Notes: a model not told the origin generated them from the sequence alone. Counted from the stretch's first letter, positions 3,351 to 59,754 are shown. The stretch is DNA of 64,000 nt from Armatimonadota bacterium (GCA_041690135.1 JAWLHY010000012.1:160001-224000), one strand, 5' to 3'. Made by a program: numbers and translations.

Positions 3351-3713
3351 ATGGAGCACAGCAAACAAATCGGTCAGCTCACAGCGGCATTGGGGATGGT
3401 TCAGGTTGAACTCGTGTACTCCGCGGGCGGAGATGACCCCTTTGAGCATGCTGGCGCGAGCGAGTTAGCCACGGTACTGCGAAGGGTAACCCCCGCGTTG
3501 AACCGGTACGGCCTGGCGGTAGTGCAGGGATTCGAGCCGGCGCCGGAGCGATACCTGAAGCTCGCTACCATGGTGATGCACCGGTCCGGGCAGTGGCTGC
3601 GTAGCACCGCGTTGACTCCCCTGGCGGAGGAGACAGTTGACGCGTTCGGCGCGGCGGCAACGGAGGCGCGGTGCCTGGGGTTGCTGACGGCCCTGGGAAT
3701 CTCGGACTGGTGA
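3351..3713 (+). CDS. ERF-family ssDNA-annealing protein, short and degenerate
   Basis: Follows the ERF pattern (L..AL...Q; P.L...GL.VVQ; T...H.SG.W..S), but the usual GSA.TYARRY motif reads GAAATEARCL and the protein ends at 120 aa. Confidence 0.7.
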   Translation: MEHSKQIGQLTAALGMVQVELVYSAGGDDPFEHAGASELATVLRRVTPALNRYGLAVVQGFEPAPERYLKLATMVMHRSGQWLRSTALTPLAEETVDAFGAAATEARCLGLLTALGISDW

Positions 3714-3801
3714 GGGGTGAGTGGTGAGGGGAGGGCGGATCACGATCACGACTGCGATTCCGATTGGGATGGGTGTTCAGGGCAGGAAGGGAGGGGAACG
3801 G

Positions 3802-4242
3802 ATGAAGGGATGTGCGGGAAGAGGTGAAAGCCTGGGAGCGGGAGACGAGTGGGTGCGGACGGCGGATGGTCGCGGCAAGGGGCGGGAGCGGCAGGGCCAA
3901 AGCGGGGCGGGGCTGACGGCGCGGCAGGCGGAGGTGTTACGCGTACTGAGAGAGCACGTGCGGCTACACGGATGCGCGCCGACGATGCGCGAGATGATGG
4001 AAACACTCCAGGTGCGTTCCACGTGCACGGTGGCCCGGATGCTGGAGACGCTGCGCCGGAAGGGCTTTCTCAAGCAGACCCGGGCCTATGCGTACCGGAG
4101 TTACTGGCCGGCGGACCTGCCGACGTACGCGGAGTTGCTGGCCGAGCTAGAAGTCCTGCGATCCGGAGCCCGGGTTGGCGAATTGTCCGATCGGAGCGAG
4201 GGAGAGGCCAACATACGAGGCAGCCGGAATCAGGGGGGCTAG
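3802..4242 (+). CDS. LexA-type winged-HTH DNA-binding protein without peptidase domain
   Basis: LTARQAEVL..L.....G.APTMRE.......S..TV...L..L.RKG.L matches the LexA N-terminal domain; start uncertain. Confidence 0.75.
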   Translation: MKGCAGRGESLGAGDEWVRTADGRGKGRERQGQSGAGLTARQAEVLRVLREHVRLHGCAPTMREMMETLQVRSTCTVARMLETLRRKGFLKQTRAYAYRSYWPADLPTYAELLAELEVLRSGARVGELSDRSEGEANIRGSRNQGG

Positions 4243-4294
4243 CGCGGTGAATTACTTTTTACCGCTACAAACGGACCAAGTGCGAGATGTGAAT

Positions 4295-4582
4295 ATGAGA
4301 GAAGCGATTGAGGGTGTGAGGAAGGGCTGTCGCCGGGAGGAAGCACCGAACGTGGAGAATGCAAGAGCCGTCGTGCGGCTACGAGAGGCGATCCACGTGT
4401 CGCAGGTGGAACTTGCCCAGCAGGCGTCCCTGTCACGAATGACACTGGCGCGTATCGAAAGCGGAGAGCGATCCATTTCGGCGCAGGAGTGGCGTGCGTT
4501 GTTGAAGGCTCTGGATGGGTTGAATCGTCGCCGGCAGCGGGAGTTTGCCCAGGTGCTGCGGGAGGTAGGGAGTTCGATCTAG
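4295..4582 (+). CDS. XRE-family HTH regulator
   Basis: LREAIHVSQVELAQQASLSRMTLARIESGER. Confidence 0.8.
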   Translation: MREAIEGVRKGCRREEAPNVENARAVVRLREAIHVSQVELAQQASLSRMTLARIESGERSISAQEWRALLKALDGLNRRRQREFAQVLREVGSSI

Positions 4583-4884
4583 TACGGCACAATGGCCTCG
4601 CAGATTCCACTTCGCTCTCGCGGGGTACCGGAGCCGCACTCCACACGGCACGACAGGTGCAAGACCACAGCCAGGCGGAGGCGGGCTGGTGGTGCCGGAC
4701 GTGCAGGAACGGGTTGGCGCGGTCCGGGTTTGGGGCGAAGGGGCAGAGGGTAAGGGAGGGCTGTCTGGCGAAGAAGCACGGCCGCCCTGCAAAGGTGGCC
4801 GTGAGGAGAACCGTGGCCGCCTCTACCGGAGATTGGGTGGAGGCGGTGTTTTCTTGTACGTCGGACGAGGAGCGTTCTGCAAAG

Positions 4885-5150
4885 GGTGGTTGTAGGTTTG
4901 CACGTTGGAAAGTTTGCAGGTTGGAAGGTTGGGGATCCTGGGGTCTGCAATGGGTACGGTTTGGCGTGAGATGGGAGCTGAGTTGGCAGCCCCCCTCGGG
5001 GGCCAGGGGTTGGCAGGTTGGCAGGTTGACAGGTTGCAGGTTGGAGGTTGAAAGTTGAAGTCCCCTCGGGGGCCAGGGGTTGGCAGGTGGAAGGTGGAAG
5101 GTTGGTAGGTTGAAGGTTGAACCTGACGTGGGGGGCAGGGGTTAGGGATG
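4885..5150. repeat. Low-complexity AGGTTG-type repeats with two copies of ccccctcgggggccaggggttggcaggt
   Basis: Read directly; copies at ~4990 and ~5062, between convergent genes. Confidence 0.75.
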
Positions 5151-8100
5151 TGGGGTTTCGGCTTTGGAAGGGTGCTCTGGGGTGGGGTGGTGGGGTTGAG
5201 GGTGGGGGCAGTAGCGGGCGAGGGTGTGGAGGAGCTGGGGTAGGTCGATCGGTTTGGGGAGGCACTCCGTGGCGCCGAGCTTCAGCATCTGCTCCCGGCA
5301 GTGCTCCGCGGCGGTGATGACGATGACCGGCACCTGGGAGAGGGCGATGTCTTCCTGGCGCTCGCCGAGGAAGGTCCAACCATTCATCACCGGCATCATC
5401 AAGTCCAGGAGGATGACGGCGGGCGGTGGGCTCGTGCGCAGGTAGTTGAGGGCGACCTGACCATCGGACGCGGGGACGACACGGTAGCCCTTCTCGCGCA
5501 GTACTTCCGCCAGGCTTTCCCGGACGTCGGGGCTGTCTTCCACGAGGAGGAGGCAGGCGGGAGGCGTGGTCTCGGACGGCGCTTCGGAGGGTGAGTTATC
5601 CCCAAGCGTATCTCCGGCCGACGCTGCTCCGAGGAGCCGGACCAGATGATCGGGTTCCACGGGCTTGACCAGGTGGTGGTCGAACCCCGCTTCTCGGGTG
5701 CGGAGGGTGTCCTCCGCCTGCCCGTAGCCGCTCACCGCGATCAGTTGGAGCCCGGCCGTGGCCGGGTCGCGGCGGAGAACTGCGGCGACATCGTAGCCAC
5801 TGATGCCGGGCAGGCCGATATCGCACAGCACCACGTCGGGACGAAAGCTCCGGACCAACTCGAGGCCGCGCTCGCCGTCCAGGGCGACCTCCGACTCGTG
5901 CCCCAGCAGCTCCAGAAGATCCAGAAGCGTTTCCGCGGTGTCGCGGTTATCTTCGATCACCAGCACGCGGCGACGGCGCGCAACGGCAGGTGTTTTCATC
6001 CCCGTACCGGGCGTGGCAGACGTGGCAGGTGCGGGTTCGCGCGGCAGCCGGAGGGTGAACTCGGCACCGCGCCCCGGGCCTTCGCTGGCGGCCCGCACCT
6101 CCCCACCGTGCATCTCCGCGAGGCCCCGGACGAGGGCGAGCCCCAGCCCCAGCCCGCCCTGGCTGCGGGCGAGGGTACGGTCGGCCTGGGAGAAGGCGTG
6201 GAAAAGGCGGGGAAGCATCTCCCGCTCAATGCCGATGCCGGTATCCCGTATGGTGAGAACGGCCCAGTAGTCGTTCTCGGGATGCAGTTTCAGTGTGATC
6301 GTGCCACCGGGGTCGGTGAACTTGAGCGCGTTGTGCAGCAGGTTGCCGATCGCCTGAGCGAGCCGGGTGGGATCGCCTCGTACCCACAGCGGCGCCTCCG
6401 GCAACTCGACTCGGAAGGTGAGCCCGGCCTGTTCCAGCGGGGGCTGGTGGTCTTCCACCACGGATTGCACCAGGGCACGGAAGTCGAGTAACTCGAACCG
6501 CAGCAGCAGTTTGCCTTGGGCGATGCGACTGACGTTCAGGAGATCGTCGATGAGGCGCGCCTCATGCTGTACCTGACGTTTGATCGTATCCACGGCGCGC
6601 CGCAGGCGAGGGTCGGGCAGGTCGGAGAGGGCGAGGACCTGTACGGCGTTGCGGATCGGGGCGAGGGGATTGCGCAATTCGTGGCCCAGCATCGCCAGGA
6701 AGTGGTTCTTGTTTTCGTCCGCCAGGCGCAGATCCCGGAAGAGGCGAGCGTTATCCAGCGCCAGTGCGGCCCGCCGGGCCAACTCCTCCGCCAGGGAGAG
6801 GTCTTCCGGCCCATAGCGGCGGTTCGGGCGGCTCGACACCAGCGTGAGCGCGCCGAGGACCCGCCCGCGGGCCGCGAGTGGTACACAGAGATAGGAGCGA
6901 GGCCCAAGCTGGCGCACGACCTTTTCGTGTTCCGGGTCGCGCGCGATCTCCAGCAGTTTTGTTTCCGGAACCTCCGCCTGCAACAGCGGCCGGCCGGAGC
7001 GGATGACGCGGGCGCTGGGATTTTGGGATTGCAGGTCGGGCGGATAACGTCGCAGCACCGCCGCCAGGCCCTGGTGTTCGTGGGCCTGACTGACCGCCAC
7101 CCGGCGGGGCGGACCCTCCGGTTCGAGCACGTCCACCAGGCACCAGTCGCCGAGAAAAGGGACGACCTGGCGGGCCATTTGCTCCAGGACCGCTTCGTAG
7201 TCCAGCGAACTGGTGAGCACGCGGCTGACTTCCGCCAGGAACTCCAGGCGCCGTTCCGCCGTTTCCGCTCGCTCGCGCGCATGGCGTTCGTCTTCATAGA
7301 CGCGGGACTGATCGAGAGCGAGCGACATCGTTTCGGCGATGAGCTCCAGAAGATGAGCTTCCTCGTCGCTGAAGCGACGCGGCTGGAGACTGCCGAGGGA
7401 GAGGACGCCGATGAGCGCTCCCCGGAGGAGAAGGGGTGCTCCCATCACGGAGATCACGCCCCGCCGACGCCGCACCTCCGTACAAAGATCCCGGGGATCG
7501 ATCCGCTCCCGGCGGAGCAGACGGCGTTCGACAGCGACCTGTCCCGCGAAACCCTGACCGAGGGGAGTCCTCCAACCGAGGTCGTCTTCGGCTTCCAGGC
7601 CCGCGGAAGCGTGGGCCACTAATTCGTCTCCCTCGCAGAGGAGCAGCGTGGCGGTGTCGACCTCCAGCACCTCACAGACGCGGTGCAGCATCTCCTGCTG
7701 GACCTCCGCGAGGGGGAGGTGGCCCAGGGCCGCCTCGGTGACCCGCTGCCGACGCTCGAGCCGGCGCGAAAGGAGCTCCGCTTCCGCACGGGCCGTTTGC
7801 TCGCGGACCAGCAGCCGATCTCGCTCCTCCTCTTCCCGGTGGCGCCCAGAAATGTCCGTGACGGCACCCAGAACGCGCACGACCCGTCCCTGTTTATCCC
7901 GCACTCCGTAGGCCCGATCGGAGACGACCGCATAGGAGCCATCGCGGCGCCGGAAGCGGTACTCCATCGACCAGTTCGGACCTCCCGCGCGGAACCAGGC
8001 GTGGAGCCTCTGGAGGACCCGATCGCGATCCTCGGGGTGGATCCGTTCCTCCCACCAGGCGAACTGCGTGCCGGCTTCAGAGAGCGGGTAGCCGAACACC

Positions 8101-9113
8101 GGCTCCATGGCGCCATCCCACAGCCCACGGTCGGGCACCATGTCCCAGTCGTAGAGGACCTCGTGGGTGGCCTGGGTGACGAGGCGGGTCCGCTCGCGGT
8201 CGCGGCGCCACTGCTGCTCCGTCTGCTGGCGCTGGACGAACTGGCCGATGAGGATGCCGAGCGCGGCCGTGGTGCGCACCAGGTCGTCGTCCGGTTCCTG
8301 GACGACGCGACTGAAGAATTCGACCACGCCGTAGCAGCGATCCCCCAGCGCCAGCGGGAAGGCAAAGACGGCGCGCAAACCCGTTTCCGCCAGCAATTGC
8401 AAACGGCGGAACTCGGTGGCACGGGTGAGGTCCGGGATCCAGCGCGGCCGGCCGGTCGCATAGACCGTACCGATGAGCCCTTCTCCAGGATGGGAGGCGA
8501 GTCCCCGGTTGATCTCATCCACGGAATTACATCCGGCGGAGGGGGAGCGCCAGAAGGCTACGCAGCGGAGCTCTTCCTGGCGGCCCCGGGGCAGCCAGAA
8601 GGCGCCGCAATCCCAGGGGGCGAGGCGAGAGAGCGTTGCCAGCAAAGCCGGAGCGGCCTTGGTCACGGATCGAGCTTCGGCCAGGATCGCGGCGACGGAC
8701 TGGTGCACGCCCCGGCGCAACTCGGCGTGGTACTGGGTGGTGATATCTCGGAAGGTAGCTACCGCCGCGAGAATCTGCCCGGCCGCACCGCGAAGAGGGA
8801 TGACATTCGCCTCGACAACCAGGCGGGTGCCATCCGGCCGCTCCACGACCATCCGGCCATCCCGGATCGGTTCACCGGTGCGCAGCACGGCGGCCATAGG
8901 GCAATCGGCGTGCGGGATGAGTTTGCCGTCCAGGTCATAGAGGCGCACCGAACCGCAGTAGACCTCCGCCGTGTCGCCCAATTGCGGCTCCCGACCCCAG
9001 AGTTCGACCGCCCGGCGGTTGAACCGCAATAGGCGACCCGACGGCGCCTCGCAGAGGTAGGCCGCCACGGGAAGGAGATCGATGAGCTGGCTGTCCAGGT
9101 CGGTCAGTCGCAT
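5142..9113 (-). CDS. Hybrid sensor histidine kinase (PAS-GAF-PAS-GAF-GAF-HisKA-HATPase-REC-REC)
   Basis: FLAMLGHELRNPLAPI, NLLHNALKFT, DTGIGI, GGLGLGL, and two receiver domains (VLVIEDN..., LLLVEDS...LLDLMMP). Confidence 0.96.
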   Translation of the reverse strand: MRLTDLDSQLIDLLPVAAYLCEAPSGRLLRFNRRAVELWGREPQLGDTAEVYCGSVRLYDLDGKLIPHADCPMAAVLRTGEPIRDGRMVVERPDGTRLVVEANVIPLRGAAGQILAAVATFRDITTQYHAELRRGVHQSVAAILAEARSVTKAAPALLATLSRLAPWDCGAFWLPRGRQEELRCVAFWRSPSAGCNSVDEINRGLASHPGEGLIGTVYATGRPRWIPDLTRATEFRRLQLLAETGLRAVFAFPLALGDRCYGVVEFFSRVVQEPDDDLVRTTAALGILIGQFVQRQQTEQQWRRDRERTRLVTQATHEVLYDWDMVPDRGLWDGAMEPVFGYPLSEAGTQFAWWEERIHPEDRDRVLQRLHAWFRAGGPNWSMEYRFRRRDGSYAVVSDRAYGVRDKQGRVVRVLGAVTDISGRHREEEERDRLLVREQTARAEAELLSRRLERRQRVTEAALGHLPLAEVQQEMLHRVCEVLEVDTATLLLCEGDELVAHASAGLEAEDDLGWRTPLGQGFAGQVAVERRLLRRERIDPRDLCTEVRRRRGVISVMGAPLLLRGALIGVLSLGSLQPRRFSDEEAHLLELIAETMSLALDQSRVYEDERHARERAETAERRLEFLAEVSRVLTSSLDYEAVLEQMARQVVPFLGDWCLVDVLEPEGPPRRVAVSQAHEHQGLAAVLRRYPPDLQSQNPSARVIRSGRPLLQAEVPETKLLEIARDPEHEKVVRQLGPRSYLCVPLAARGRVLGALTLVSSRPNRRYGPEDLSLAEELARRAALALDNARLFRDLRLADENKNHFLAMLGHELRNPLAPIRNAVQVLALSDLPDPRLRRAVDTIKRQVQHEARLIDDLLNVSRIAQGKLLLRFELLDFRALVQSVVEDHQPPLEQAGLTFRVELPEAPLWVRGDPTRLAQAIGNLLHNALKFTDPGGTITLKLHPENDYWAVLTIRDTGIGIEREMLPRLFHAFSQADRTLARSQGGLGLGLALVRGLAEMHGGEVRAASEGPGRGAEFTLRLPREPAPATSATPGTGMKTPAVARRRRVLVIEDNRDTAETLLDLLELLGHESEVALDGERGLELVRSFRPDVVLCDIGLPGISGYDVAAVLRRDPATAGLQLIAVSGYGQAEDTLRTREAGFDHHLVKPVEPDHLVRLLGAASAGDTLGDNSPSEAPSETTPPACLLLVEDSPDVRESLAEVLREKGYRVVPASDGQVALNYLRTSPPPAVILLDLMMPVMNGWTFLGERQEDIALSQVPVIVITAAEHCREQMLKLGATECLPKPIDLPQLLHTLARYCPHPQPHHPTPEHPSKAETPHP

Positions 9114-9269
9114 GGGGTGTCCGCCATAGGTCTCCGTCCTCGGTCTCGAGACGCACGCGCGCGCCGCTTCTTTTTACAGGCTACCCCGGAGGTGGGGTTC
9201 GCCACCCTGGCAGTTCCGTCCCGGGCCGCTTTCCACAGGACCTGGTTCAGGGCGTAGCCGGCCGGGGGG

Positions 9270-9445
9270 AGCGGGTTGGGCAGAAACTGCCCAAAGAGGG
9301 GCCTCTCGATGGCTAAATTCGCGCTGGTCGGACTATCTACCCAGCGGGAGGACCGCATCGCTCCCTGAGTCACGGCAGGGTCAGGGCTTTGTACCGCTGG
9401 TGAGACGTCGCGCTCACTGACCGTGACACAGGCAGCGGTGTTTTT
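9270..9445 (+). promoter_or_regulatory. Conserved leader element, copy 1 (operator-like palindrome, promoter-like segment, structured RNA/terminator)
   Basis: Aligns with 14503-14588 + 15223-15315 and with 34863-35045; contains the palindrome ttgggcag-aaa-ctgcccaa. Confidence 0.8.
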
Positions 9446-10067
9446 GCGTTGCCGGCCGCTGAGAAGGGGCCAAATCTCTCGCAGACCCATACGGGTCCGA
9501 ATTGGAGCCGCCAAGACGCAAAGGAAGACGCATAAGGTGAGGAAAGTGCGGCCGGAGGGGCGTCCCTTCGACCGCTGTTTTTGTCTCTGAAGAGACGCCT
9601 GATGATCCGGAAATCGGAGGGGCAGGGCGGGCTGCGGAGCCTTCGCAGCCCGCCCTACCCGTCTCAGAGCCTGTCTAAGAAATGGAGGAGCGGCCTGCAA
9701 CTGGCTGCGAGCCGGGCATGCGTTGTCGGGCCGCCAGGCACGGTCATGCTTCGAGAACGAGCCCGGCGTCCCTCCTAGCCTGCCCGGCTCTCGCTCAGTT
9801 TCGGCTTCGCTCCCATTCTTAGACAGGCTCTCAGGTTCTTATCGGGGTGGCGACCCACCCCCAGGAAGCACGCCAGATCTACGCTCTCGGGGAGTCGGGA
9901 CAACTCTGGCGGTAAGGAGCAGCGCAGTGGCATCAGGAAGGAAGACAAACACCATTGACTGGCCCGCTTGGACCAGCGCCCCTCGGATTCGGCCCACCGG
10001 CGGAGCCAGTCATCCGCAGCACCGGACCCCAGAGCGGCCCGGTGCGACCTCTGCGAGGGGACCCGTG

Positions 10068-13000
10068 ATGAAGGCGCCAGCCAGGCCGAAAGTACCAGCG
10101 CCTGCGGGTGGCACCCTCCTAGCGTGGCAACGGCAAGTGGCGGAACTGAACCGCGAGATCCAACAGATCAAGCAGTGGCAACAGCAGCCCGGCACGGTCT
10201 ACGGCACCGCCCAGCGAATGATTGAAGCGCGGATCACCCGCATGAGCCTGCTGAAGCAGCGGATCGAGGAAGCGAAGCGCGGGGTTCGCACGCCGCCCAC
10301 CCATCCCCAATCGGTGGAGCGGCGGAGCGCGCAGGCAAAGCAAGCCATGGCGCGGTCCGCGGCCCACCGGCGCGCAAAGAATGCTTTCAACGCCACGGTG
10401 CCGATCGACCTGATCCGCCTGGAAGCGGAGCGGGAGAGCCCTCTGACCCAGCAGGTCGCGAGTGGTCTGGCGGGAGTGGTGGGTGCGGACCCCTACCAGG
10501 ACGAGTCGCGGGCCATTCTCCGCAAGCGGCAGCAGAAGGGCACGGCGCCGACCCTACGAGTCCAGCCCGCAGAGGTGGGCCAGATCCAGGCCCTGCGGCC
10601 CTATGTGGAGGACTTCCTGAACGCCACGCGCCGGGATTACCACACGCTGCGGAAGCAGGGGATCACGCCGCTTTCCGTGGACCGGCTGCGCGCGTATCTC
10701 CAGCAGGAATATGCGGGTCGCCGGAAGCTGACGGCGGCGCAGGAACGGGCGTTGCCGGGCATCCTCGCCGGGCTGCAAGTGCGGTGGGACGAGCGGGTGC
10801 GCGGCGCCAAGCGCGTAGGCGCCCGCCTGGCGGAGAATGCCGTCGGCGTGGCGACCGGCGGAGCGGGCCTCTTGCCGCGCGCGGCGGCGGCGGCCAGCGC
10901 GGGGATCGTCGCGCAGGCGTTCGTCGATACGAACCATCCGGAACTGACCGCGGCGGAACGGCTCCAGTCGGCCGGCACGGCGGGTCTGTTTTCGGCCGGT
11001 GCGGAGGGTCTCGGCGCCGCGTGGCAGGCAGCGCGCAAGGTGAAGAGCCCCACGGTCTCCCCGGGACCGGTATCGCCGCACCCGGTACCCGGGGCGCCAC
11101 ACTCCGCAAAGCCGGGGCCCGCCGGAGGGCCGTTCGCGGAAGCGAAGCCGGGGAACTCCCTTCCGGCAAAGGCTCCCTCTCCCGGCCCGGCTCCCCGGCC
11201 CCGCCCGGGAACGCGCGTGACGGTGAAGACGCCCCGCGGCGCCCGGATTACCGGGGAGGTCACCCGCTCCTCGCCGGACGGTCGGACGGTGTACGTGCGG
11301 AACTCCGCCACGGGTAAGGAGGTGCCGGCCAGGGTACCGCCAAAAGGCGCACCAGGCGTGCCCCAGAAGGGCGCGCCCGCGACACCCTCGAAAGCCCCTG
11401 CGAATCCGAAGCAGCCGGCGGTAGGCGGTCCCCAGCCTACTCCGGCACCGCAGCAGGCGTCTCCGGCCGCGAAGCCACCGTACCCGCCGGTGCCCGCGCG
11501 CCCCGCGGAACCCCCGGCCGTTACCGGATGGTCGGAGCCTACTCCCGCTTCGCAGGGAACCTTGACCACGGCGCAGCATGGGGGACACCCCGGCGACGAA
11601 CGCCCGCCTGGCAAAGCAGACGGCGAACGACGTGGCCGGGGCCGCCCCGGCTCCCCGCAGCCGGCCGGAGGGGGCACCGGGTAACCGCAGTGCTCCGGCG
11701 TCACCGGGCGCCACCGGCAACCGGAAACCGGGTACCGCACCGGACGCGACGGGCAACCCGAAACCCGCTACCGCACCGGACCCGGTGGAAGCACGGTCGG
11801 GCCAGCGCGGCGATACACCCCCCGCGGTGCCGGAGGCGCCGGTGACCCGGGGAGGCCCGGAACCGGAAGGGGTCCCGGCGAAAGCGACCGGATCTCGTCG
11901 GCGCCGTCCGGTGGAAGGGATGCACGACTCCGCCCTGACGGGAACGGCGGCCACCGCCACGACGCGCGCCGCCGCGCGCGCCACCGGGCGGACGGCACCG
12001 GGAATCCCCACCGGCACGCCCGTGGCCACCCCTACGGGCGGGAGCATGGCCTCCCCCGGCGGGCCACCTTCCCCCGGCGGAACACCCCCCACGGGGGGAC
12101 CGCCCCGCGGCGCGCCACCCGGTGCCCCCGGACAACCGCAACCGAGAACCACTACCGCCCCCGCGCAGCAGCCGGGGGCGGTCGGCGTTTCTGGCTCCGC
12201 GGGAGGGAGCAAAACCCCCACGTCCCAGAGCCAGGGAAGGCCTCCGGGACTCACCCCGGGTGGCCCCCCATCGGGGCCGCTTCGCCAGGCGGAGGTCGAG
12301 GAGGACATCCGCGACGTACTGGCGCGGCTCCGGAGCGGCGGCCGGAAAAGCAACGAGAACGGCGCCTTCACCCGCGCGGGGGATGAGCAGCGGCTGAGAG
12401 ACCTCCGGCAGGAGCGGCAGGACCTGGTGCGCGGCCGGGGCGGGCGGTACCGGGTGGGGGAGCCGGTGGTCGGCACCCGGCACAACGGGACAAGGGAGGC
12501 GCTGGTCTACGACGGGATGGCCAGCGACACGCACGCCTACGTGAGAGACCCCAGGACGGGACGGCGGCGTTCGGGAACGGTGCCGGTCGAGCGCCTGCGG
12601 ATACCAGCACCCGGTGTCCCCAACAGCCGTCGTGCAAAGCTTCATGCCCACTTGGATGCAGCGGAAGCCGCCGCCCGGCAGAAGTTGAGTGCGCTCCGGG
12701 CTTCGCGCCGGGGCGGGAAACTCGCTGCCGGGCTTGGCGGCTTTAGTGACCTGCTGGAGGAAGCACCGCACTGGATCGAGATCGGCGCGGTGCAGATGGC
12801 ACGTGGACTGCTCGAGTTCGACGCCTGGTCGCGCCGGATGCTGGAGGAGTTGGGGGACGAACTGCGGGCCACGGGGCGGAACGTGGATGAATTACTCCGG
12901 GAGATCTGGGGTCTCTCACGAAGAGTACATGGTGAAGAAACACATAGCCGTGGCAAACAAACGTCCGATCTGATTCTAGGGAAGAAGAGCCTCGCGTTCA

Positions 13001-13526
13001 CGCCCGCCGAAAGGGAATTAAAGCCGCTTCACTGAAGCCTAAGAGCAAGAAGGGTGCTGCCAACTACCTCAAAGCCGCGGAGGAGCGTGAGTATCCAGAT
13101 AGCGCTGCCTTCCCTTGGGGAGAGGGTGATTTTAAGGTGTGGTTCGACAGTGCGAATATGGAAACTTTCGTGGCGGCATGGACTGATAAGACCGTTAGAC
13201 TAGCTATCGAACGGCGGATCCGCCACCCCGGAGGTCTCCACGAATGGTTGATGACCGCACGGGCAGACAAATTCAAGGAGTGGGGTATGTCTATTGCGCT
13301 GATTCATGAGCTACGTACCCGCATAGTAGATGTGGAGTGGGTTAATCCATCTGGGCGCCACGGTGGAAAGGGTTCGGGGCGAGCTCACAGGGAAATCTTA
13401 AAGCTGATCGACGCCAGTGCGACCTATGGCGAGTATGTAGTTGCTTTGAACAAGTGGGCCGACAGTCGCCTTAAGGGTGGTCGGACTGCATTGCCTGATG
13501 GACTTCAGATTGTGGAGGGGAGATGA
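10068..13526 (+). pseudogene. Polymorphic giant protein A, broken into three frames (10068-11684, 11578-13035, ~12948-13526); His-rich putative nuclease-type toxin tip
   Basis: N-part is paralogous to D (RMIEARITRMSLLKQRIEEA / AGVVGADP). Carries the shared linker and shared domain. Tip reads RHPGGLHEWL...GRHGGKGSGRAHREIL...LPDGL. Confidence 0.7.
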
Positions 13527-14259: not shown

Positions 14260-14475
14260 TCGTGGGTCGGGCTGTCGGCACCCGCACTGGGACAACCGCG
14301 GCCACGACACTGGCCGGAAGCGTCGGCTCACCCGCCGGGGGAGCCCCGGCAGGCGGAGCACCCCCCACGGGGGGACCGCCCCGCGACGCGCCGCCCGGTG
14401 ACTCCGGACAACCGCAACCGAGAACTACCACCGCCCCCGCGCAACAGCCGGGGGCGGTCAGCGTTTCTGGGTCCG
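14260..14475 (+). repeat. Orphan linker remnant with hairpin (GGAPPTGGPPR...[11 protein letters not shown])
   Basis: DNA similar to 12040-12195, 55880-55990 and 58520-58660. Confidence 0.85.
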
Positions 14476-14502
14476 GCTCGGGGGCGTCGACGGCCGGGAG
14501 GA

Positions 14503-14588
14503 AGCGGGTTGGGCAGAAATTGCCCAGAAAGGGGCCTCTCGATGGCTAATTTCGCGCTGGTCGGACTATCTACCCATCGGGAGGACCG
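14503..14588 (+). promoter_or_regulatory. Leader element copy 2, 5' half (palindrome, promoter-like segment, RBS)
   Basis: Near-identical to 9270-9355. Confidence 0.8.
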
Positions 14589-14592
14589 ACCG

Positions 14593-15015
14593 GTGAACAG
14601 TGATTTCGAAACCCAACTGTCCGAATACTGCCGCGAGGCCCGGCTGACAGCCGTACAGACGGAGATCGTGGAGCTCTACCTGATCCTGGAGATGCCGCCA
14701 GCGCAGATCCGCTTGAAGACGGGGCTGAAACGGGTGAGCCAGGTGCAGGCGGAACTCGCCAAAGCGCTCCGGAGGCTGCAAGCCGTGGCGCCCGGCTTCT
14801 GGGAAGAGGGGAACGCCTTCCCCCGGCACCTGCTGGCGGCGGTGCGCAACCGTCCCGAACGCGACGAGCGGCCGCGGGACGTACGGGGCGTGACCCCGGA
14901 CCGGGAGGCGGAGCGGGCGCCGCGGGTGCGGATGGTGACCGCGGGCGACCGGCGCCTCCGGCAGGACCTCCGCAGCGCGGCCCGGTTGTGGGCGCGGTCG
15001 CGGAGTGGTGCATAG
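14593..15015 (+). CDS. Sigma70 region-4-like HTH protein; candidate late activator/antiterminator
   Basis: GGAGG RBS before GTG; LTAVQTEIVELY......PAQI....GL..VSQV...L.KALRRL resembles the sigma-4 HTH; located directly before the lysis/packaging genes. Confidence 0.55.
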   Translation: MNSDFETQLSEYCREARLTAVQTEIVELYLILEMPPAQIRLKTGLKRVSQVQAELAKALRRLQAVAPGFWEEGNAFPRHLLAAVRNRPERDERPRDVRGVTPDREAERAPRVRMVTAGDRRLRQDLRSAARLWARSRSGA

Positions 15016-15222: not shown

Positions 15223-15315
15223 CATCACTCCCTGAATTACGGCAGGGTCAGGGCTTTGTACCGCTGGTGAGACGGCGCGCTCACCGGACCGTGATACCGC
15301 AGCGGGTATTTCTTT
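15223..15315 (+). ncRNA. Leader element copy 2, 3' half (candidate pseudoknotted RNA)
   Basis: Matches 9356-9445 and 34951-35045, with base-pair-preserving changes. Confidence 0.55.
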
Positions 15316-15337
15316 GCCTACCGGAAAGGGGGTGGGG

Positions 15338-15619: not shown

Positions 15620-15644
15620 CCACGGAACAACGAAAGGATGGTGG

Positions 15645-16597: not shown

Positions 16598-16716
16598 GCA
16601 GTGGAGGGCCTTCGGCCGATTGGATGAGGATTAGGATGAGGATCGGCCTGCGGCCTCTGGAAGGCAGTGGGTAGTGGAGGGATGGAGGGGTGAGGGGTGG
16701 GTGGAGAGGCGGGTGG

Positions 16717-47189: not shown

Positions 47190-49538
47190 ATGGCGATCGG
47201 CGTGTTTCGGCCGAACCGGGGCAAGCCGCTGGAACAGCGGATCCGGGATATCGAGCAGCACCTGGCACAGCTATCGCTGGACCCGGAAACGGTCCAGCAG
47301 ATCCTGGCCGGCGGCGGGTTCGGCGGTGGCGGGGGTGGCGGGGGCGGCTCATCCATCCGGCTGCCCCTGCCGGAGTCGCAGGTGAAGTGGGACCCGACGA
47401 GCGGGCACATGCACGACGGGACGGACGCGGAAGGGGCGAAGATCAGTCATGCGAACCTCGACCCGGCGACCGTTACGCCCGATCAACACCACGCGCAGGT
47501 CCATGTCCTCGCCTCGACCACGGGGCTCGGCGCGGATCACACGGTAACGGGGCTCACCAGCGGACAGGTGCTGAAGGCGACGGGACCGGATACGGCCCGG
47601 TTCCAGGCGCTGGGTCACCACGAGCTGGATCCGGGTTCCATCACCGCGGATCAGCACCATGCACAGGTCCACGCACTGGCCTCCCCGTCCGGCCTGGGGG
47701 CCGATCACACCGTATCGGGATTAACCGCAAACCAGGTGCTGAAGGCGACCGGGTCCACCACCGCCCGGTTCGAGCTGCTGGGCCACGACGAGCTGGACCC
47801 CGCCTCGATCACCGCGGACCAGCATCACGCGCAACAGCATGTACTGGCCACGACGGCGGGGCTGGGAAGCGACCATACCGTAGCGGGCCTGACGGCAAAC
47901 CAGGTACTGAAAGCGACCGGACCTTCCAGCGCGCGGTTCGAGTTGCTCGGTCACGACGAGTTGGACGCGGCGTCGATCTCCCCCGATCAGCACCACGCGC
48001 AGGTGCACACGCTGGCCTCCACCTCGGGGTTGGGAGCGGACCACACCGTATCGGGCCTGACGGCGAACCAGGTGCTGAAGGCGACCGGTTCGACCACCGC
48101 CCGGTTCGAGCTATTGGGCCATGACGATCTCGATCCGGCCACGATCGGCGAAGACGACCACCACGACCGGGCGCACGTCCTGCTCGGCAATAGCGACCAC
48201 AGCGATACGACCATTGTGGGTGAACCGGCCACCGGAGACCTGATCTACCGGAACGGAGCGTCGTTTTGGACGCGGCTGGGGATCGGCTCGACAGGCAATA
48301 TCCTGCGCGTGGTGAGCGGAGTGCCGGCGTGGGTGGCCCATACCTTTGCCAACCTCCCCGACAGCATCTCGGCCGCACAGCATGGGAATCTGACCAGTAC
48401 GGCGGAAAGCACCGCCGATCACTCCGGCACGCTCTCCGCGAACGCGCGGGTAGCCGTGCGAGTGAACTCGGACGCAGACCCTGGAAAAACTTACCGGCGG
48501 CGCAGGCTCAACTTCATAGAAGGCAGCAATGTCACCATTGACGTTGCCGAGGACGTGGGCGAGGAAGAGATCGACATTACGATTTCCCAGGCCAGCGTAT
48601 CGGCGGCGACCATCATCGTGCAGGAAGGTGACGCCACCGTGGATGCCGCCGCCTCCACCCTGGACTTCGCGGCCGGCGACTTCAACGTGACCAGCAGCCC
48701 CGCCGGGGAAGCAAACATCGCCTGGCACGGGTTCACGGTTCAGGAGAATGACAGCGACGTTGACACCGCCTGCAAGATACTGGACTTCAACGGCAGCGAC
48801 TTCAACGTGACCAGTAGCCCGAGCGGGGAGGCGAACATCGCGTGGCAGGGAATGGCGGTCGAAGCCGGGGATGTCGCCGTGGCCGCCGACGTCAAGACGC
48901 TGGATTTCGGCGCGGGCTTCGACGTTACCGCCTCCGGTGGCGAGGCGGAGATCTCCCTGGACCTCTCCGAAGTGGTGACCGGCGACGTGTCGTTCTCCGG
49001 AAATGCGGCGACCGTGGACCGGCTGAAGGGCAAAACGCTCCCCACCCCCGCCTCCGGCGACGACGGCAAAGTCCTGCGTTACGACCACGCCAACGGGGAG
49101 TTCGACTTCGTAACGCTGAACCCCGTGGCCACCAGCGGCGCACCGGTCTTCGTGGGGGCATGGGCTCACGCCGGGATCAACGCCTTTTCGGCGGGCTCGC
49201 CCGCCGGGCCGATCCCCTGCGCTCTCAACCCCGGCAATGCCAACCCGATTGTCCAGCGCCTGCGGACCGGGTATGCCGGACACCTGACGAAGGTGGTCCT
49301 CGATATCGGCGGCGACCTCGGTGGGGGCGCCACCAGCCTGACGGCCACGGTCTACGTTAACGACATCGCCGCCGGACTGACCGCGACGATCACGGGCGGT
49401 GCGGGCACAGAAGATTATGCCCTCGGGACCGGCAGCGTGGCCGTGAGTGAAACGGACAACGTTTCGATCTACCTGACCCGCACCGGCGGCACCAACAACC
49501 GCCACGCCGTGGTGCGGGTGTATATGACGCCGAGTTAG
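47190..49538 (+). CDS. Tail fibre/spike-like protein with His-rich 56-aa repeats
   Basis: AAGGAGG RBS; GDLIY.....WTRLGIGSTG..L.V.SG.PAW fibre motif; RRRLNFIEG; 168-bp repeats. Confidence 0.75.
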   Translation: MAIGVFRPNRGKPLEQRIRDIEQHLAQLSLDPETVQQILAGGGFGGGGGGGGGSSIRLPLPESQVKWDPTSGHMHDGTDAEGAKISHANLDPATVTPDQHHAQVHVLASTTGLGADHTVTGLTSGQVLKATGPDTARFQALGHHELDPGSITADQHHAQVHALASPSGLGADHTVSGLTANQVLKATGSTTARFELLGHDELDPASITADQHHAQQHVLATTAGLGSDHTVAGLTANQVLKATGPSSARFELLGHDELDAASISPDQHHAQVHTLASTSGLGADHTVSGLTANQVLKATGSTTARFELLGHDDLDPATIGEDDHHDRAHVLLGNSDHSDTTIVGEPATGDLIYRNGASFWTRLGIGSTGNILRVVSGVPAWVAHTFANLPDSISAAQHGNLTSTAESTADHSGTLSANARVAVRVNSDADPGKTYRRRRLNFIEGSNVTIDVAEDVGEEEIDITISQASVSAATIIVQEGDATVDAAASTLDFAAGDFNVTSSPAGEANIAWHGFTVQENDSDVDTACKILDFNGSDFNVTSSPSGEANIAWQGMAVEAGDVAVAADVKTLDFGAGFDVTASGGEAEISLDLSEVVTGDVSFSGNAATVDRLKGKTLPTPASGDDGKVLRYDHANGEFDFVTLNPVATSGAPVFVGAWAHAGINAFSAGSPAGPIPCALNPGNANPIVQRLRTGYAGHLTKVVLDIGGDLGGGATSLTATVYVNDIAAGLTATITGGAGTEDYALGTGSVAVSETDNVSIYLTRTGGTNNRHAVVRVYMTPS

Positions 49539-55300: not shown

Positions 55301-57754
55301 TATCGTAATGTGGAAGACGTAAAGGCGCAAGTCCGAGCCGCTTATGATGCGGAATACACCCGACGACAAGGAACAGCAGATGCCATCCCCGACTCCCTCC
55401 ACCGCGGGTTCACGGGTTCTTACGCCCGAAATGCAACAGGAACTCGAGATCTTCAAGGAAAACCTCAATCAGGTCCGGAAGGAAGCGGCGGAAAGGCAGC
55501 GCCAGAAGATGGAAACCTCCCGGACGACCCCGGCGACCCCGGAACTGGCGGAGTAGGCCCCCGCCCCCCTGCCCCTCCTAGCGGCGGTCCGGCCGCTCCC
55601 TCTGCCATACCTCCTCGAGAGAACGACCCCTCTTCCCCAACACCCACCACGTCTGACGGTGGAGCGGCTACCCCCGATCGTAGAAACACCACCGGGCTGG
55701 CCAACCAGGTGCAGGAGGGGGAGGTGGAGCTCGGGATCATCGCGCCCCCGGAGAAGGGGGTGAGCGCCGGGGCGCAAGAGGCCCATGCCGAGGGGAAGCG
55801 CCTGGTGGAGGCCGGCGGGAAGCCACTCCCGCGCCGCGCTCCGGCAGGGGCTTCCGGAGAGACGCCCTTCGGGGATCTTCCTCCCGCAGGAGGCCCACCC
55901 CGCGGAGCGCCGCCCGGTGACTCCGGACAACCAAACTCGAAAACCTCAACCGCCCCCGCGCAACAGCCGGGGGCGGTTAGATTTTCTGGACCCGGCGGGA
56001 GGAGGATCCCCACCGCACCCAGGCAGGGGACGGGCGCGAGGACCGCTCCGCCCGCTTCTGCGCCGGCCGTGCCCAACCAGCAGGAGGTGGAGCGGGAGAT
56101 TGATGTGGTCGTGGAGCGGCTCAAGAGCGGCGGCCGGAAAGGCAACGCGAGCCGGTCCTTCACCCGTGCGGGGGATGAACAGCGGCTGCAGGACCTCCGG
56201 CAGGAGCGGCAGGACCTGGTGCGCGGCCGGGGCGGGCGGTTCCGGGTCGGGGAGCCGGTAGTCGGCACCCAACACAACGGAAAGAAGGAGGCGCTGGTCT
56301 ACGACGGGATGGCCAGCGACACGCACGCGTACGTGAAGGACCCCCGAACGGGGAAGCGCCGGGCGGGCACGGTGCCGGTCGGGAGCCTCCAAAGAACCCG
56401 ATCAGCCCCACCTCAGTCGGATATGGTCGGCGTGCGAAGGACTGCTGAGGGCCAGACTCTACGGGTTCCAGGTTCTGGGGCTCCGGTAGGCCGGCGAGCA
56501 GATCTCCACGCCCGATTGGATGTGGCGGAAGCCACCGCCCGGCAGAAGCTGGCTGCGCTCCGGGCCTCGCGCCGGGGCGGGAAGCTCGCGTCGGAATTGG
56601 GCGGCTTCAACGACCTGCTGGAGGAGGCCTCGCACTGGATCGAGATCGGCGCGGTGCAGATGGCACGGGGGCTCGTGGACTTCGAAGCTTGGTCGCGCCG
56701 GATGCTGGAGGCGGTGGGGGACGAACTGCGGGCCACGGGGCGGAACGTGGATGAATTACTCCGGGAGATCTGGAACGCATCACGAAAGAAGTATGCGGAA
56801 GAGCGGCGGAGTAATCCTGCAGAAGGGCCGGAGAACGTTGAGCCGGATCATAAGCTAGATTTGGCGGTTGGAACGAAAGGTGAGTCGCAGGACTCGGCTC
56901 ACCCACTCCAGTTCAAAACCAAACCCGCCACAGCCGCAAGTGGCGAAGGTCGCCGCAGTCCATCCTCACAGCGCCGGGGAAGCGGAGGGGTTCATGATGC
57001 GTGGAGACAACCAGGCATGCCCAGAGTCCGCTGGAATTGGTCTGGTATTAAGGGGGCAATGCAGTCCGATCGAATCAACGAAGACACTCTGCTCGCTGCA
57101 GTCGAGGACTGGCGCAATAGTATGGAGCTGGATTTCTCGCGGATGGAGATTCGTCTACTTCCGCAGGAAGCGAAGCGCCGTCCCCATCTAGATCTTAGCG
57201 CAGATGTGATCAACGATAACCCTGTCTATGTGCACGGCTTTGTCAACGCAAGGAGCCCGCATGCAATCCATCTCTACAATCCCACCTCGGAATGGCCGGA
57301 CATTCGACAGGATATGCTGCGTGATCTCTATCGTGCACATGGGCGTGGCCTATTGTCTCCTCAAGACTTCCTTGACTTCGTGCGTGAAGCTCCGCGATTA
57401 GCCGAGGAATATATTGCGGGAACTCTGAAGCATGAAACGGGACACTCGCTTCTGGTCGAAACCTTCGGGAATCACCGCCGGCGGAGGTTCAAAGGTTGGC
57501 AGCGACTCATGCCCGATCATCTGTATGGTGTGATGGTAAGTGCGCTGAAGCTGGCTGGGACGAAGACTGACAATGATGCGATTGCAGATTCTATTGCGGA
57601 AGCGGTTGCAGAAGACGTGCGCCGGTGGCATACTGGCTATTATAGCCCTCTCAATAGTCAGACCTGGTTGGCCGATGCGGCCGATCCACATGGAGCTTGG
57701 GAACGTGCAGAGGAGGTATGGAAATGGCTGAAAAACGCTCACGACCGGCGGTAG
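52382..57754 (+). CDS. Giant polyvalent ejection protein D: SLT lytic transglycosylase + zeta-toxin-like P-loop + shared domain + zincin tip
   Basis: [25 protein letters not shown]...ALAAYNAG (SLT); [12 protein letters not shown]...VVDGT (zeta-like); LKHETGH...SIAEAVAE (zincin). Confidence 0.85.
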
Positions 57755-57945: not shown

Positions 57946-58192
57946 GTGGCCTTGGCGATGATGTCTGGCTGAGATTTCGATGGACATTCATCCCAAGAGC
58001 AACCCACGTGAAAGGTCGAATGAGGCTTTGACGACCCCTGCCCTCAGCCGAATCTTCGACGCAGCGGTTCACTTTGGCGCAGGTGACGTCGTTATCGAGG
58101 AGGACCCCGAGGCCACGTCCTTTCCGAAACAGGTGGGCGGCGTAGACGTCGCCTACTGATCCCTGCGAAAGCGTGCCGTCACCAGATTCCAT

Positions 58193-58230
58193 AAGCCGCC
58201 CCAGGGAGTTTTCCCTCGGGCGGCTTTTTT
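58193..58230 (+). terminator. Intrinsic terminator
   Basis: aagccgccc...gggcggctttttt. Confidence 0.75.
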
Positions 58231-58239
58231 TCGCGTACC

Positions 58240-58760
58240 CAGAGGCGACCCCTCGCCGGACGCCGGGTGACGCTCCGGAACCGGATACTGAGCGAGGGCG
58301 TCGCCGGGAAGAACCCGGAAACGGGCAGCACACACAAGAGCCGGAAGGGGTCCCGGCGAAAGCAACCGGAGCTCGCCCACGCCCGGTGGAAGGGACGGAC
58401 GAGACTTCCCTGACGGGAACTGTGGCCACCGCCACGACCCGGGCCGCGCGGAACGCCGCCCGGACCGCCTCCGGTACCCAGACGACTACGGCCTCGCCTT
58501 TGGGCGGGAACGTGGACACCCCCGGTGGGTCAGCCCCGGCAGGTGGAGCACCCCCCACGGGGGAAGCCACCCCGCGGCGCGCCGCCCGGCGGCCCCGGAC
58601 AATCGCAACCGAATACCACCACCGCCCCCGCGCAAAAGCCGGGGGCGGTCCGCGTTTCTGGCTCGGGAACACCGGAAGACACTCGGGGGTTCGGGCCGCC
58701 GGAGAGGAAGCCGCAGCGGGTTCCCTGTCCCAGCGGGTTCCAGCACCGGTACCACAGATA
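58240..58760 (+). pseudogene. Orphan linker remnant with hairpin
   Basis: EPEGVPAKATG..RPVEG...LTGT.ATATTRAA duplicates ~11860-11990; hairpin at 58621-58649. Confidence 0.75.
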
Positions 58761-58977
58761 ATACGTGGAGACGTTACGGAGGGGCGACGCCGCCTGGTAG
58801 CCACATCTCGGAGGAAGATTACCATAAGTCGGGCTACCTTCTGCTACAATGGAAACTGTCAGGGTTACAAGCTAAGGGCCGTATGCTAGTCTGGCCTATA
58901 AGCATTCTGGGCCGGTAGACATTCGCTGTGGATGGCCACGACGAGGTCGCCACGAGGCGGGCTCCCCATCCATCTCT

Positions 58978-59460
58978 GTGTGGCAAGGCGGTGACAGGTT
59001 GCCTCAGAACGTTGCGATCTATGGCTATGCACCGGATATCGAAGAGATTCCGGAGAGCCTGCGCAGCATGACCGGAGAGGCTGTGCACGTAGAGGCGCAG
59101 GACGGCCAGTGGAGCAGCATCACGATACAGGGCCGGAACGCTACGCTCGTGTTCCGCTGCCTGCGGCCAGGACCGCCCCCGGACGACTTCTCGCGCGGCA
59201 TCCTCGGGATCTATAACTACGCCAAGCGTATCAAGGCAACATCGGAAGAGATCCAGAAGGAGCTGCTGCACCATCTGGCCAATGCGAAGTGCATCATTGC
59301 CGTAGTGGCCACGCCAGGCTTTGACGTCGATGCCGGGCACCCGGATCTGATTGCGGAAGTTTGCGATCGTGCCGATGGAGTTTTGTTCAATGGCAGGGAC
59401 TTCCTTAATGTGGAGTGGGACGTCCTGCTGGGCGCGGATGGAAGTAGCGAGGTGGAGTAA
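58978..59460 (+). CDS. Hypothetical protein (immunity-like); start uncertain
   Basis: Clean 160-aa ORF downstream of the remnant cassette. Confidence 0.6.
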   Translation: MWQGGDRLPQNVAIYGYAPDIEEIPESLRSMTGEAVHVEAQDGQWSSITIQGRNATLVFRCLRPGPPPDDFSRGILGIYNYAKRIKATSEEIQKELLHHLANAKCIIAVVATPGFDVDAGHPDLIAEVCDRADGVLFNGRDFLNVEWDVLLGADGSSEVE

Positions 59461-59466
59461 GGCGAC

Positions 59467-59754
59467 ATGGTGATCCGTGGAGAAGACGAGGGCTACTTCT
59501 GGTTCGATGACCCCACCCCAAATGGCCCCCCTGATAAGGAATTCTTCGACCTGGCACGGGGATTGTCCCACCTCACTGCGTGGGAGTTGCAGATTGCGTT
59601 AGACGACCTGGCGGAGCAGCTTGGAGTGGCGGCCCCGAGTGCGGAACACTTCCTGGCCACGGGTGAGCTGGACCCCTACCCCGGCGACCCTGCGGATGCC
59701 GTGAAGTGGGCGCTGCCGGCCCCCCGAAGCCGGGCCGACGCACCGGAGGGGTAG
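59467..59754 (+). CDS. Small acidic hypothetical protein
   Basis: Closely spaced after the previous ORF. Confidence 0.55.
   Translation: MVIRGEDEGYFWFDDPTPNGPPDKEFFDLARGLSHLTAWELQIALDDLAEQLGVAAPSAEHFLATGELDPYPGDPADAVKWALPAPRSRADAPEG

Follow-up and report, generated by a model that had tools for sequence, protein, structure and literature searches.

RcGTA-type gene transfer agents (GTAs) and PBSX-type defective prophages have structural and lysis genes without integrase or replication genes, and the characterised GTAs are compact, stripped clusters of 13-19 kb. Rhs and contact-dependent inhibition (CDI) loci contain orphan toxin-immunity cassettes, in which repeats of the 3' conserved region head alternative C-termini and a short open reading frame (ORF). 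In phages and prophages, MuF toxins are encoded just after the portal gene together with a small immunity ORF, according to the available part of Jamet et al. 2017 (PMC5576092), and polyvalent proteins are packaged in virions and include zeta-like kinases fused to MuF, as described in the available part of Iyer et al. 2017 (PMC5512222). Here we analysed a stretch of 64,000 nucleotides (nt) (the window; G000:C12:160001-224000) from the genome of an Armatimonadota bacterium (9.1 Mb, 25 contigs, 65% G+C). Based on ORF calls and Pfam, a phage-derived block occupies about 3.1-59.75 kb of the window, with host genes on either side. At about 56 kb, or about one headful, this element looks like a phage genome in size and organisation. 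The reading we favour, tentatively and with slightly less than even confidence, is that it is a non-autonomous prophage with a late region that would still work and with exchangeable polyvalent or polymorphic cargo tails.

The locus stands out by its cassettes and by a terminase in two pieces, and not by its likeness to GTAs. Repeat analysis, all-vs-all BLASTP and alignment identified a module of 109 amino acids (aa) that follows a Pro/Gly-rich linker in four proteins of the element (1447, 692, 1790 and 485 aa), with 55 of the 109 columns invariant. Past the module, the 1447-aa protein has 283 aa with an HExxH motif, the 692-aa protein has a DUF3626 domain, and the 485- and 1790-aa proteins have a helical domain common to both. 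The first 367 aa of the 692-aa ORF (linker and module) share 74% identity with residues 794-1164 of the 1447-aa protein. Small ORFs follow the C-termini, and two of these are paralogues (phrog_33375), namely the 102-aa ORF after the 1447-aa gene and the ORF at 29059-29466. A conserved region, a variable C-terminus and spare copies sharing the conserved 5' part were all found, as in orphan cassettes. Fragments of module-region DNA were also located at 14277-14485 and 58338-58725, and a 36-nt core motif was present in six copies (at most three mismatches), all on the + strand, as compared to 0 expected. In metagenome contigs of relatives, position 27659 is joined to 32041, exactly at repeats, and switches between module copies were detected from 29792 to 25529 (in two runs) and from 26204 to 30490. 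As these recombinant joints lie at repeats, recombination between the copies occurs in nature. The module had no homologue beyond its own four proteins among 1.84 billion representatives; three weak matches were obtained, two of them in Ig/FN3 repeat proteins. Inversion switching (shufflon) was rejected since repeat analysis found no inverted repeats, and a diversity-generating retroelement (DGR) since no reverse transcriptase was detected by Pfam.

Immediately downstream of the portal gene, which ends at 22802, the ORF of the 1447-aa protein starts at 22860. The gap from the portal to the head genes is 12,880 nt, in comparison to 1,051, 1,920 and 2,042 nt in all three related loci that are long enough for the comparison (L005, L009 and L016). 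In such loci the gene order is large terminase (TerL), Cpn10-like, portal, 1-2 kb, the homologue of the gene at 35682, the homologue of the gene at 37777, and major capsid protein (MCP). The 12.9 kb are therefore an insertion of this lineage. The initial annotation had described this region as about 12 kb of toxin cassettes between the portal and the head genes. The distance was correct and the repeated module with variable C-termini is real, but only one C-terminus belongs to a known effector-type family (DUF3626). SopF, in which this family is also represented, is an ADP-ribosyltransferase. The occurrence of the DUF3626 domain in this Salmonella effector is taken from the available part of PMC6682159. 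The gene for the 1447-aa protein was also present in a relative from metagenome run X1. Its N-terminus had no homologue in a collection of 5.8 billion sequences, and ESM Atlas scores for residues 230-790 (0.83-0.85) were below significance, with LPD and PT-TG as leads only. The C-terminus with HExxH matched no family, showed no similarity to the 198-aa ORF of the second cassette by BLASTP, and is followed by the 102-aa ORF. In L009, a related metagenome locus, the gene after the portal (L009 12188-12880) encodes a histidine phosphatase (His_Phos_1, E 2e-28), and in this phage group the position after the portal seems to be taken by variable enzymes.

At the end of the tail block, the 1790-aa ejection-type protein combines at least two disparate catalytic domains in a virion context, as polyvalent proteins do, and it also has the shared module (56075-56389) and a C-terminal extension. 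A partial duplicate of its gene is found early in the element, where the 1790-aa protein is matched through its residues 268-727 by the ORF 9723-11684 (30% identity over 486 aa) and through its residues 1126-1477 by the ORF 11578-13035 (485 aa, with the shared module; 59% over 353 aa). Toxin delivery, which had been proposed at first, is plausible by architecture, and the evidence for the toxins themselves consists of one family match and one motif.

TerL is encoded by two ORFs, and in this point the virion and lysis gene set, which the initial annotation had called near-complete and which Pfam and PHROGs otherwise confirmed, had to be corrected. Elsewhere TerL is a single ORF, of 596 aa in L016 and of 567-648 aa in 5/5 longer homologues. 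The split was found again in a soil-metagenome relative, on a 9207-nt contig of run X1, with ORFs of 263 and 318 aa and the same ends, and this contig also bears a portal that is 89% identical. An assembly artefact and a recent lesion are therefore both excluded as its cause. The two halves keep 48/55 (ATPase) and 71/81 (nuclease) of the positions that are invariant in five full-length homologues. We infer a two-polypeptide terminase, probably made by translational coupling, with a frameshifted fusion as the alternative. The TerL of L009 is interrupted by about 0.9 kb (L009 5142-6005) between the ATPase and nuclease parts, and the TerL homologue P0021 (648 aa) contains a LAGLIDADG domain (PF14528); TerL proteins of this family thus seem to be interrupted easily between their two domains. 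A gene with a Cpn10 domain is kept between TerL and the portal in L005, L008, L009 and L016.

All long late ORFs were open by ORF calling and every core virion ORF was intact. The absence of neutral decay in the structural genes, on which the initial proposal depended, was confirmed by comparison with relatives. Over portal residues 63-695, 145 of 1900 nt and 24 amino acids differ from the X1 contig. This corresponds to a pN of about 0.017, a pS of about 0.25 and a ratio of about 0.06-0.07, by rough arithmetic in which about 74% of the sites were taken as non-synonymous and the DNA of the relative was not itself readable. Against a relative with about 90-92% nt identity, the residue differences were 2/313 in the MCP, 14/263 in the N-terminal and 11/318 in the C-terminal TerL ORF, 25/314 in the 314-aa head protein and 20/229 in the endolysin. 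Portal, terminase and capsid are under strong purifying selection, and with a dN/dS this low the branch of the window can hardly have gone through a long neutral phase. These values are silent on whether a phage or a host-owned particle was selected.

Profile scans covered 56 ORFs with Pfam, 51 with PHROGs, 34 with NCBIfam and 25 with PADLOC, and sub-regions were rescanned at loose thresholds. None of the four libraries, loose rescans included, detected an integrase, excisionase or transposase, and over the ORFs of the element none detected a helicase, primase, polymerase or initiator. ARAGORN found 0 tRNA genes in the window. The only candidate attachment (att) site is a direct repeat (14/15) at chance level. 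The lack of integrase, replication genes and tRNA noted initially was upheld. The pair (3122-3136 and 59742-59756) is placed exactly at the two boundaries of the element; chance alone would give about one 11-mer match across the six pairs of regions compared, by our arithmetic, which makes it a weak candidate and a lead only. The integrase or transposase with att sites and the replication module of a complete temperate prophage were therefore both missing from what we recognised. A search of the rest of the genome, which had been advised, gave seven matches to the tyrosine recombinase family PF00589, all on other contigs than that of the element, and 0 matches to the large serine recombinase family PF07508 in the whole genome; tBLASTn with all element proteins found neither another copy of the element nor any displaced part of it. 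A tyrosine recombinase gene is found at 37441-37989 of contig C23 (40.5 kb, 62% G+C, the lowest in the genome), which may be a separate mobile element and showed no similarity to the element studied here. PADLOC detected no defence systems in the variable regions.

The early genes that had been described (eroded ERF, LexA-like and XRE), followed by a host kinase gene of about 4 kb, were recognised as such by Pfam and PHROGs; the kinase, a hybrid histidine kinase of 1323 aa, lies on the opposite strand. In L009 an RNase H and an SF2 helicase are encoded directly upstream of the terminase. As these were recognisable, replication genes of this phage group are detectable when present.

Homologues of the portal were rare. 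A collection of 5.8 billion proteins contained 10, one of them 89% identical and nine 35-51% identical, on contigs of 3.8-67 kb. The portal profile found 11 metagenome loci and one viral contig, and none among species-representative genomes and genome contigs. Single-protein searches for portal loci in viral and genome collections gave nothing, and neither did the queries P0003 and P0006 against viral contigs. Of 401 genomes sampled from the phylum, a whole-genome hidden Markov model (HMM) search detected the portal family in 2, namely in that of the window and, as a distant match (E 3e-35), in one more. None of 6 genomes from the same family contained it, which is a weak test because these six belong to other genera; a single-protein search was positive in 1 of 41 genomes. 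On these numbers the vertical, syntenic inheritance across a host clade that is expected of a GTA was not seen. A sporadic locus among relatives had been named at the outset as the finding that would speak against maintenance by the host, and as far as these genomes allow a test this is what we found. The flank marker DUF6493 was 41-49% identical in sister genera and has a paralogue in the own genome; because of this paralogue, and because the kinase family has 37 matches, flank synteny in sister genera could not be resolved. Two flanking host genes have relatives on public contigs with about 95% amino acid identity (LysR 159/168, oxidoreductase 174/183), and the element proteins have relatives with 90-99%. 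The flank identity gives weak hints of co-divergence with the host. The MCP profile found 20 loci among viral contigs; besides the contig of L016 itself they have only the MCP in common with the element and are for that reason uninformative on genome organisation.

In the mechanism that we propose, the element would be the integrated genome of a new, uncultured lineage of short-tailed phages with an SU10-type portal and adaptors and an HK97-type capsid. Its integration-excision and replication modules would have been lost, leaving it unable to move or to replicate by itself. The late region would be functional and selectively kept, in three leader-headed and terminator-punctuated units for lysis and packaging, head, and tail and ejection. 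On induction the cell would presumably lyse and release DNA-containing podovirus-like particles, a state like that of PBSX-type defective prophages. The likely internal and injected proteins, i.e. the 1447-aa protein encoded after the portal and the 1790-aa protein with SLT and zeta-kinase domains, would be polyvalent cargo; they are expected to be packaged and injected because of their position, their domain content and what the available parts of the papers on MuF toxins and polyvalent proteins describe. The 109-aa module and the conserved 36-nt motif would join these cargo proteins to different C-terminal domains, some of them possibly toxic, while further copies elsewhere in the element would head extra C-terminal domains with small, possibly immunity-conferring ORFs after them. 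Homologous recombination between the direct repeats would then swap or delete C-termini, as in Rhs/CDI orphan cassettes.

Several observations weigh against this account. The loss of autonomy is deduced from a failure to detect families, and about 20 ORFs have no family at all. The purifying selection could date mostly from the time when the lineage was an autonomous phage. Particle production is a prediction, no RNA run was found to contain the locus, and three DNA metagenome runs contain only 6-7% of its words. The split TerL might not package DNA. Residues 1-797 of the 1447-aa protein gave no match to a MuF domain (Pfam E up to 1, PHROGs up to 0.5), only one C-terminal domain lies in a recognised effector family, and AlphaFold models built from single sequences for the C-termini with HExxH and with DUF3626 were unusable (predicted local distance difference test, pLDDT, of 42.8 and 39.5). 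Outside the core virion genes, though not in them, there is also some decay, seen as a miniature inverted-repeat transposable element (MITE), the frame-broken duplicate at 10065-13035 and remnants at 31967-32700. Such decay, together with the truncated Erf, the missing modules, the cassette remnants and a TerL in two frames, could also be taken to indicate an inert prophage remnant in which intact genes reflect very recent inactivation. We give this explanation little credence, as the TerL split is older than about 8-10% nt divergence with both halves still open and conserved, no core virion ORF is broken, and a dN/dS of about 0.06 is hard to reconcile with a long neutral phase. A fully autonomous temperate phage, using unrecognised integrase and initiator families or the recombinases and replisome of the host, seems just as improbable to us. 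Tyrosine and serine recombinases and DDE transposases belong to the families that profiles detect best and four libraries showed none, no unassigned ORF is of the size of a helicase, primase or polymerase, the replication genes of L009 were readily recognised, and a host kinase gene and REP-like repeats sit where early genes should be. The direct repeat at both ends would suit such a phage but is no better than chance; the size of about one headful, the intact regulatory genes, the ORFs without family and a selection pattern like that of an active phage speak for it.

The proposal made initially was a domesticated particle maintained by the host. In its broad form this would be a producer of particles that the host has domesticated, be it as a DNA shuttle of GTA type or to kill by injecting polymorphic toxins, which is vertically inherited, selected by the host and regulated via host signalling such as the embedded kinase. 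Part of it stood: integration and replication genes are missing while the structural genes are undecayed and under strong purifying selection, the split TerL is conserved, and a host MITE, a kinase of a host family and host-type hexamer and heptamer arrays lie inside the element. The similar divergence of flanking genes and element proteins would allow co-divergence. The sporadic distribution of the portal family and the phage-like size and organisation, which are unlike compact GTA clusters, did not agree with it, we saw no relative with shared synteny, any link between the element and the host contig of 95% identity is hypothetical, and regulation by the kinase is pure conjecture. We consider this reading unlikely, though less so than the two above. 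Its most specific version, a host-kept and non-replicating podovirus-derived particle, inherited with the chromosome of a soil lineage and equipped with a two-piece terminase, whose capsid holds interchangeable toxin-tipped proteins for injection into neighbours, is a little more doubtful again. What probability remains belongs to explanations that we have not thought of. The non-autonomous prophage with exchangeable cargo is the reading that we retain, and the features on which it is based are listed in Table 1.

Table 1. Features of the element and its boundaries, with positions counted from the first nucleotide of the window.
Feature	Position	Strand	Evidence or remark
Direct repeat, left copy (14/15)	3122-3136	.	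Weak candidate att core and left boundary
Short Erf-like single-stranded DNA-annealing protein, 120 aa	3351-3713	+	phrog_2324 E 3.9e-12, profile positions 2-121 of 193
Winged-helix protein with LexA DNA-binding domain, without S24 peptidase domain	3721-4242	+	PF01726 E 1e-17, residues 64-120
XRE-type helix-turn-helix (HTH) regulator	4175-4582	+	PF01381 E 2e-9; PADLOC control-protein model
Host-type intergenic repeats (heptamer arrays and REP-like hairpin)	4890-5125	.	Downstream of kinase gene
Hybrid histidine kinase, 1323 aa (PAS, GAF, HisKA, HATPase, two receivers)	5142-9113	-	Pfam; host family
Leader copy 1	9266-9444	+	Palindrome, 19-codon upstream ORF (uORF) 9310-9369, conserved hairpins
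MITE-like element, 173 nt, inverted ends	9663-9835	.	Two more genome copies, 92-93% identity
Partial, frame-broken duplicate of ejection-protein gene	10065-13035	+	Without SLT and kinase parts
Two small ORFs, 129 and 226 aa	13137-14203	+	After module-bearing ORF; no family in Pfam, PHROGs, PADLOC, NCBIfam
Leader copy 2, split by 634-nt insert	14482-14588 and 15223-15328	+	uORF from 14543
Lysis genes: putative holin-like 101-aa ORF with hydrophobic stretch, and endolysin	15314-16597	+	
Endolysin, GH108 and PG_binding_3	15662-16597	+	PF05838 E 1.3e-26; phrog_315 E 8.7e-48
Putative small terminase	16851-17450	+	Position only, no family match
TerL ATPase half, 263 aa	17468-18259	+	38% identity to residues 41-269 of L016 single-ORF TerL
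TerL nuclease half, 318 aa	18261-19217	+	PHROGs; different frame; ATG one base past ATPase-half stop
Cpn10 (GroES)-domain protein, 331 aa	19520-20515	+	Pfam, domain residues 47-113
Portal protein, SU10 type	20502-22802	+	PF23899 E 1.2e-20
Strong terminator-like hairpin	22834-22856	+	10 pairs, 9 G-C; start of inserted block, after portal gene
Post-portal protein, 1447 aa	22860-27203	+	Orphan N-terminal 790 aa, Pro/Gly-rich linker, shared module (25926-26252), C-terminal 283 aa with HExxH
102-aa ORF directly after 1447-aa gene	27219-27527	+	phrog_33375; immunity-like by position
Second cassette, ORFs of 265, 198 and 135 aa	27662-29466	+	Repeats D7, D13
692-aa 'orphan' ORF	29522-31600	+	C-terminal DUF3626 (SopF-type) domain, PF12294 34.5 bits against cut-off 27
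Small ORFs and frame-broken copy of second-cassette start (32041-32340)	31626-34840	+	
Leader copy 3	34861-35041	+	Ahead of head genes; uORF 34905-34964
Three tandem terminator-like hairpins	35537-35628	+	3, as compared to 0.8 in shuffled sequence
Head-assembly genes, 314, 296 and 172 aa	35682-38295	+	First and third conserved in related loci; relatives 90-92% identical
MCP, HK97-type, 313 aa	38386-39327	+	PF25209
Two SU10-type adaptor paralogues	39979-41359	+	PF24175 E 3.3e-9 and 3.5e-12
Putative tail, fibre and internal-protein genes, 178, 302, 236, 980, 848, 210 and 729 aa	41494-52378	+	Position only
Ejection-type polyvalent protein, 1790 aa	52382-57754	+	SLT PF01464 E 2.2e-31 (residues 32-129); zeta-toxin-like kinase PF06414 E 1.2e-7 (859-955); phrog_342
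Remnant of a chimeric cassette (58173-58889), then the last two ORFs (160 and 95 aa)	58173-59754	+	
Direct repeat, right copy (14/15)	59742-59756	.	Right boundary; host LysR gene next at 59948

The leader, of about 180-200 nt, was found in three copies and nowhere else in the 9.1-Mb genome, and one copy is positioned ahead of the displaced head block as had been reported. Each copy has conserved hairpins, a 19-codon uORF and a perfect palindrome, which occurs nowhere else in the window (3 matches as compared to 0.28 expected). In the second copy the insert extends the uORF into an ORF of 151 aa (14560-15015), which has an HTH-like stretch by eye only and no family match in Pfam, PHROGs or NCBIfam. 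For covariation of the leader hairpins there are two full copies to compare, too thin a basis to judge, and Rfam gave 0 matches at gathering thresholds. The three tandem hairpins separate an ORF after the third leader (34995-35303) from the head genes. Hairpins before the head genes and after the portal suggest antitermination control, and we speculate that promoters, leaders and terminators may form a late circuit that needs antitermination.

Host-type DNA was found at several places inside the element. For the kinase, a search of the own genome gave 37 matches to its family, the best paralogue being 57% identical. The repeats downstream of the kinase gene are iteron-like and were considered as a phage origin, which was rejected as the same repeats occur host-wide, with 39 heptamer arrays and 74 copies of the REP-like (repetitive extragenic palindromic) hairpin motif (at most two substitutions) in the genome. 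Further 7-nt arrays are present at 37581-37721, 40614-40674 and 41361-41404. The MITE copy is inserted between the first leader and the first gene of that unit, and the other copies are located at C1:790016-790188 and C10:288193-288366. Purine-rich hexamer arrays (units starting with GAT, AGGA-rich) number 174 in the genome and five in the element, as compared to 1.1 expected from its length; all five are intergenic and on the coding strand, at sites including 16601-16643, 19204-19365, 37525-37667 and 39329-39377. None was detected in 18 other loci (13 phage-related and 5 from sister genera). These arrays may be host signals for translation or RNA binding. With host kinase, MITE and repeats inside, the element is well embedded in, or adapted to, its host. 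Ordinary host proteins are encoded by the 20 kb that adjoin the window on each side and by its own ends, and the flanking genes include hybrid histidine kinases, a DUF6493 protein, an aldo-keto reductase, LysR, an oxidoreductase, a sulfatase and an acetyl-CoA synthetase.

In the tail region, the large ORFs between the adaptors and the ejection protein (980, 848 and 729 aa and others) matched no family in Pfam, PHROGs or NCBIfam, and sequence searches of the PDB with the 980-, 848-, 729- and 1447-aa proteins gave no match. The 302-aa and 236-aa proteins are paralogues by all-vs-all BLASTP. The presumed fibre gene (848 aa) contains four tandem repeats of 168 nt (56 aa) at 47481-48146, which are 74% alike. 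The last ORF, of 95 aa, has a relative that is 91% identical and diverges at the last residues.

The injected effectors known from phages, such as MuF toxins and polyvalent proteins, are for the most part fixed fusions, and this locus points to cassette exchange on two virion proteins via a private module, with recombinants visible in nature. A search of literature listings found neither orphan cassettes on phage virion proteins nor a podovirus-derived GTA with toxin cargo, although supplements of key papers may list related architectures. A natural large terminase of two polypeptides that has survived about 10% divergence bears on how ATPase and nuclease cooperate. With strong selection and no mobility genes, the element is also a test case for the grey zone between defective prophage and domesticated particle, in a poorly studied soil phylum and in a phage lineage without cultured relative.

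Compared with the systems described before, the locus resembles RcGTA and PBSX in its structural and lysis genes without integrase or replication genes and in the purifying selection on structural genes. It differs from them in having no conserved syntenic distribution and a podovirus-type tail, and its 56 kb correspond to a phage genome and not to a stripped cluster of 13-19 kb, so that the GTA-like particle suggested initially did not hold in this respect. A tailocin, which had been named initially as another domesticated phage gene set, was rejected because capsid, portal and TerL are all present. Among podoviruses the nearest are those of SU10 type (Kuravirus), as the portal and both adaptors score above the cut-offs of PF23899 and PF24175. 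However, the DNA of the element had no match in 50,697 phage records, the portal had five partial matches of 24-31% identity there, the MCP is 26-33% identical to podovirus capsid proteins, and the TerL homologue P0020 gave no match to the phage records at E 1e-10.

The post-portal gene is like those of MuF toxins, as far as the available text describes them, in that it is large and placed right after the portal, has a variable C-terminus and a small ORF next to it, and is borne by a phage or prophage, with virion delivery proposed. Unlike them, the 1447-aa protein has no detected MuF domain and an N-terminus without homologue, its module before the C-terminus recurs in the ejection protein with SLT, which is encoded at the opposite end of the late region, and the host is not a Firmicute. 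There are also extra 'orphan' copies here, a word that does not occur in the available text of PMC5576092. Polyvalent proteins, in the available part of their description, are very large, virion-associated, combine unrelated catalytic domains and are predicted to be injected with the DNA. The same combination is suggested here by a lytic transglycosylase and a zeta-toxin-like kinase in the 1790-aa protein and DUF3626 on a paralogue. However, they are described there as fixed multidomain arrays, whereas here the C-termini lie behind a repeated, recombination-prone module with spare copies. In this the locus resembles Rhs/CDI loci, where direct repeats likewise head C-termini and small ORFs and recombination swaps or deletes cassettes, as the natural joints indicate here. 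The module is unrelated to known pre-toxin modules, and delivery would be by a phage particle and not by a secretion system; if confirmed, this would extend the orphan-cassette logic of Rhs/CDI to phage particles.

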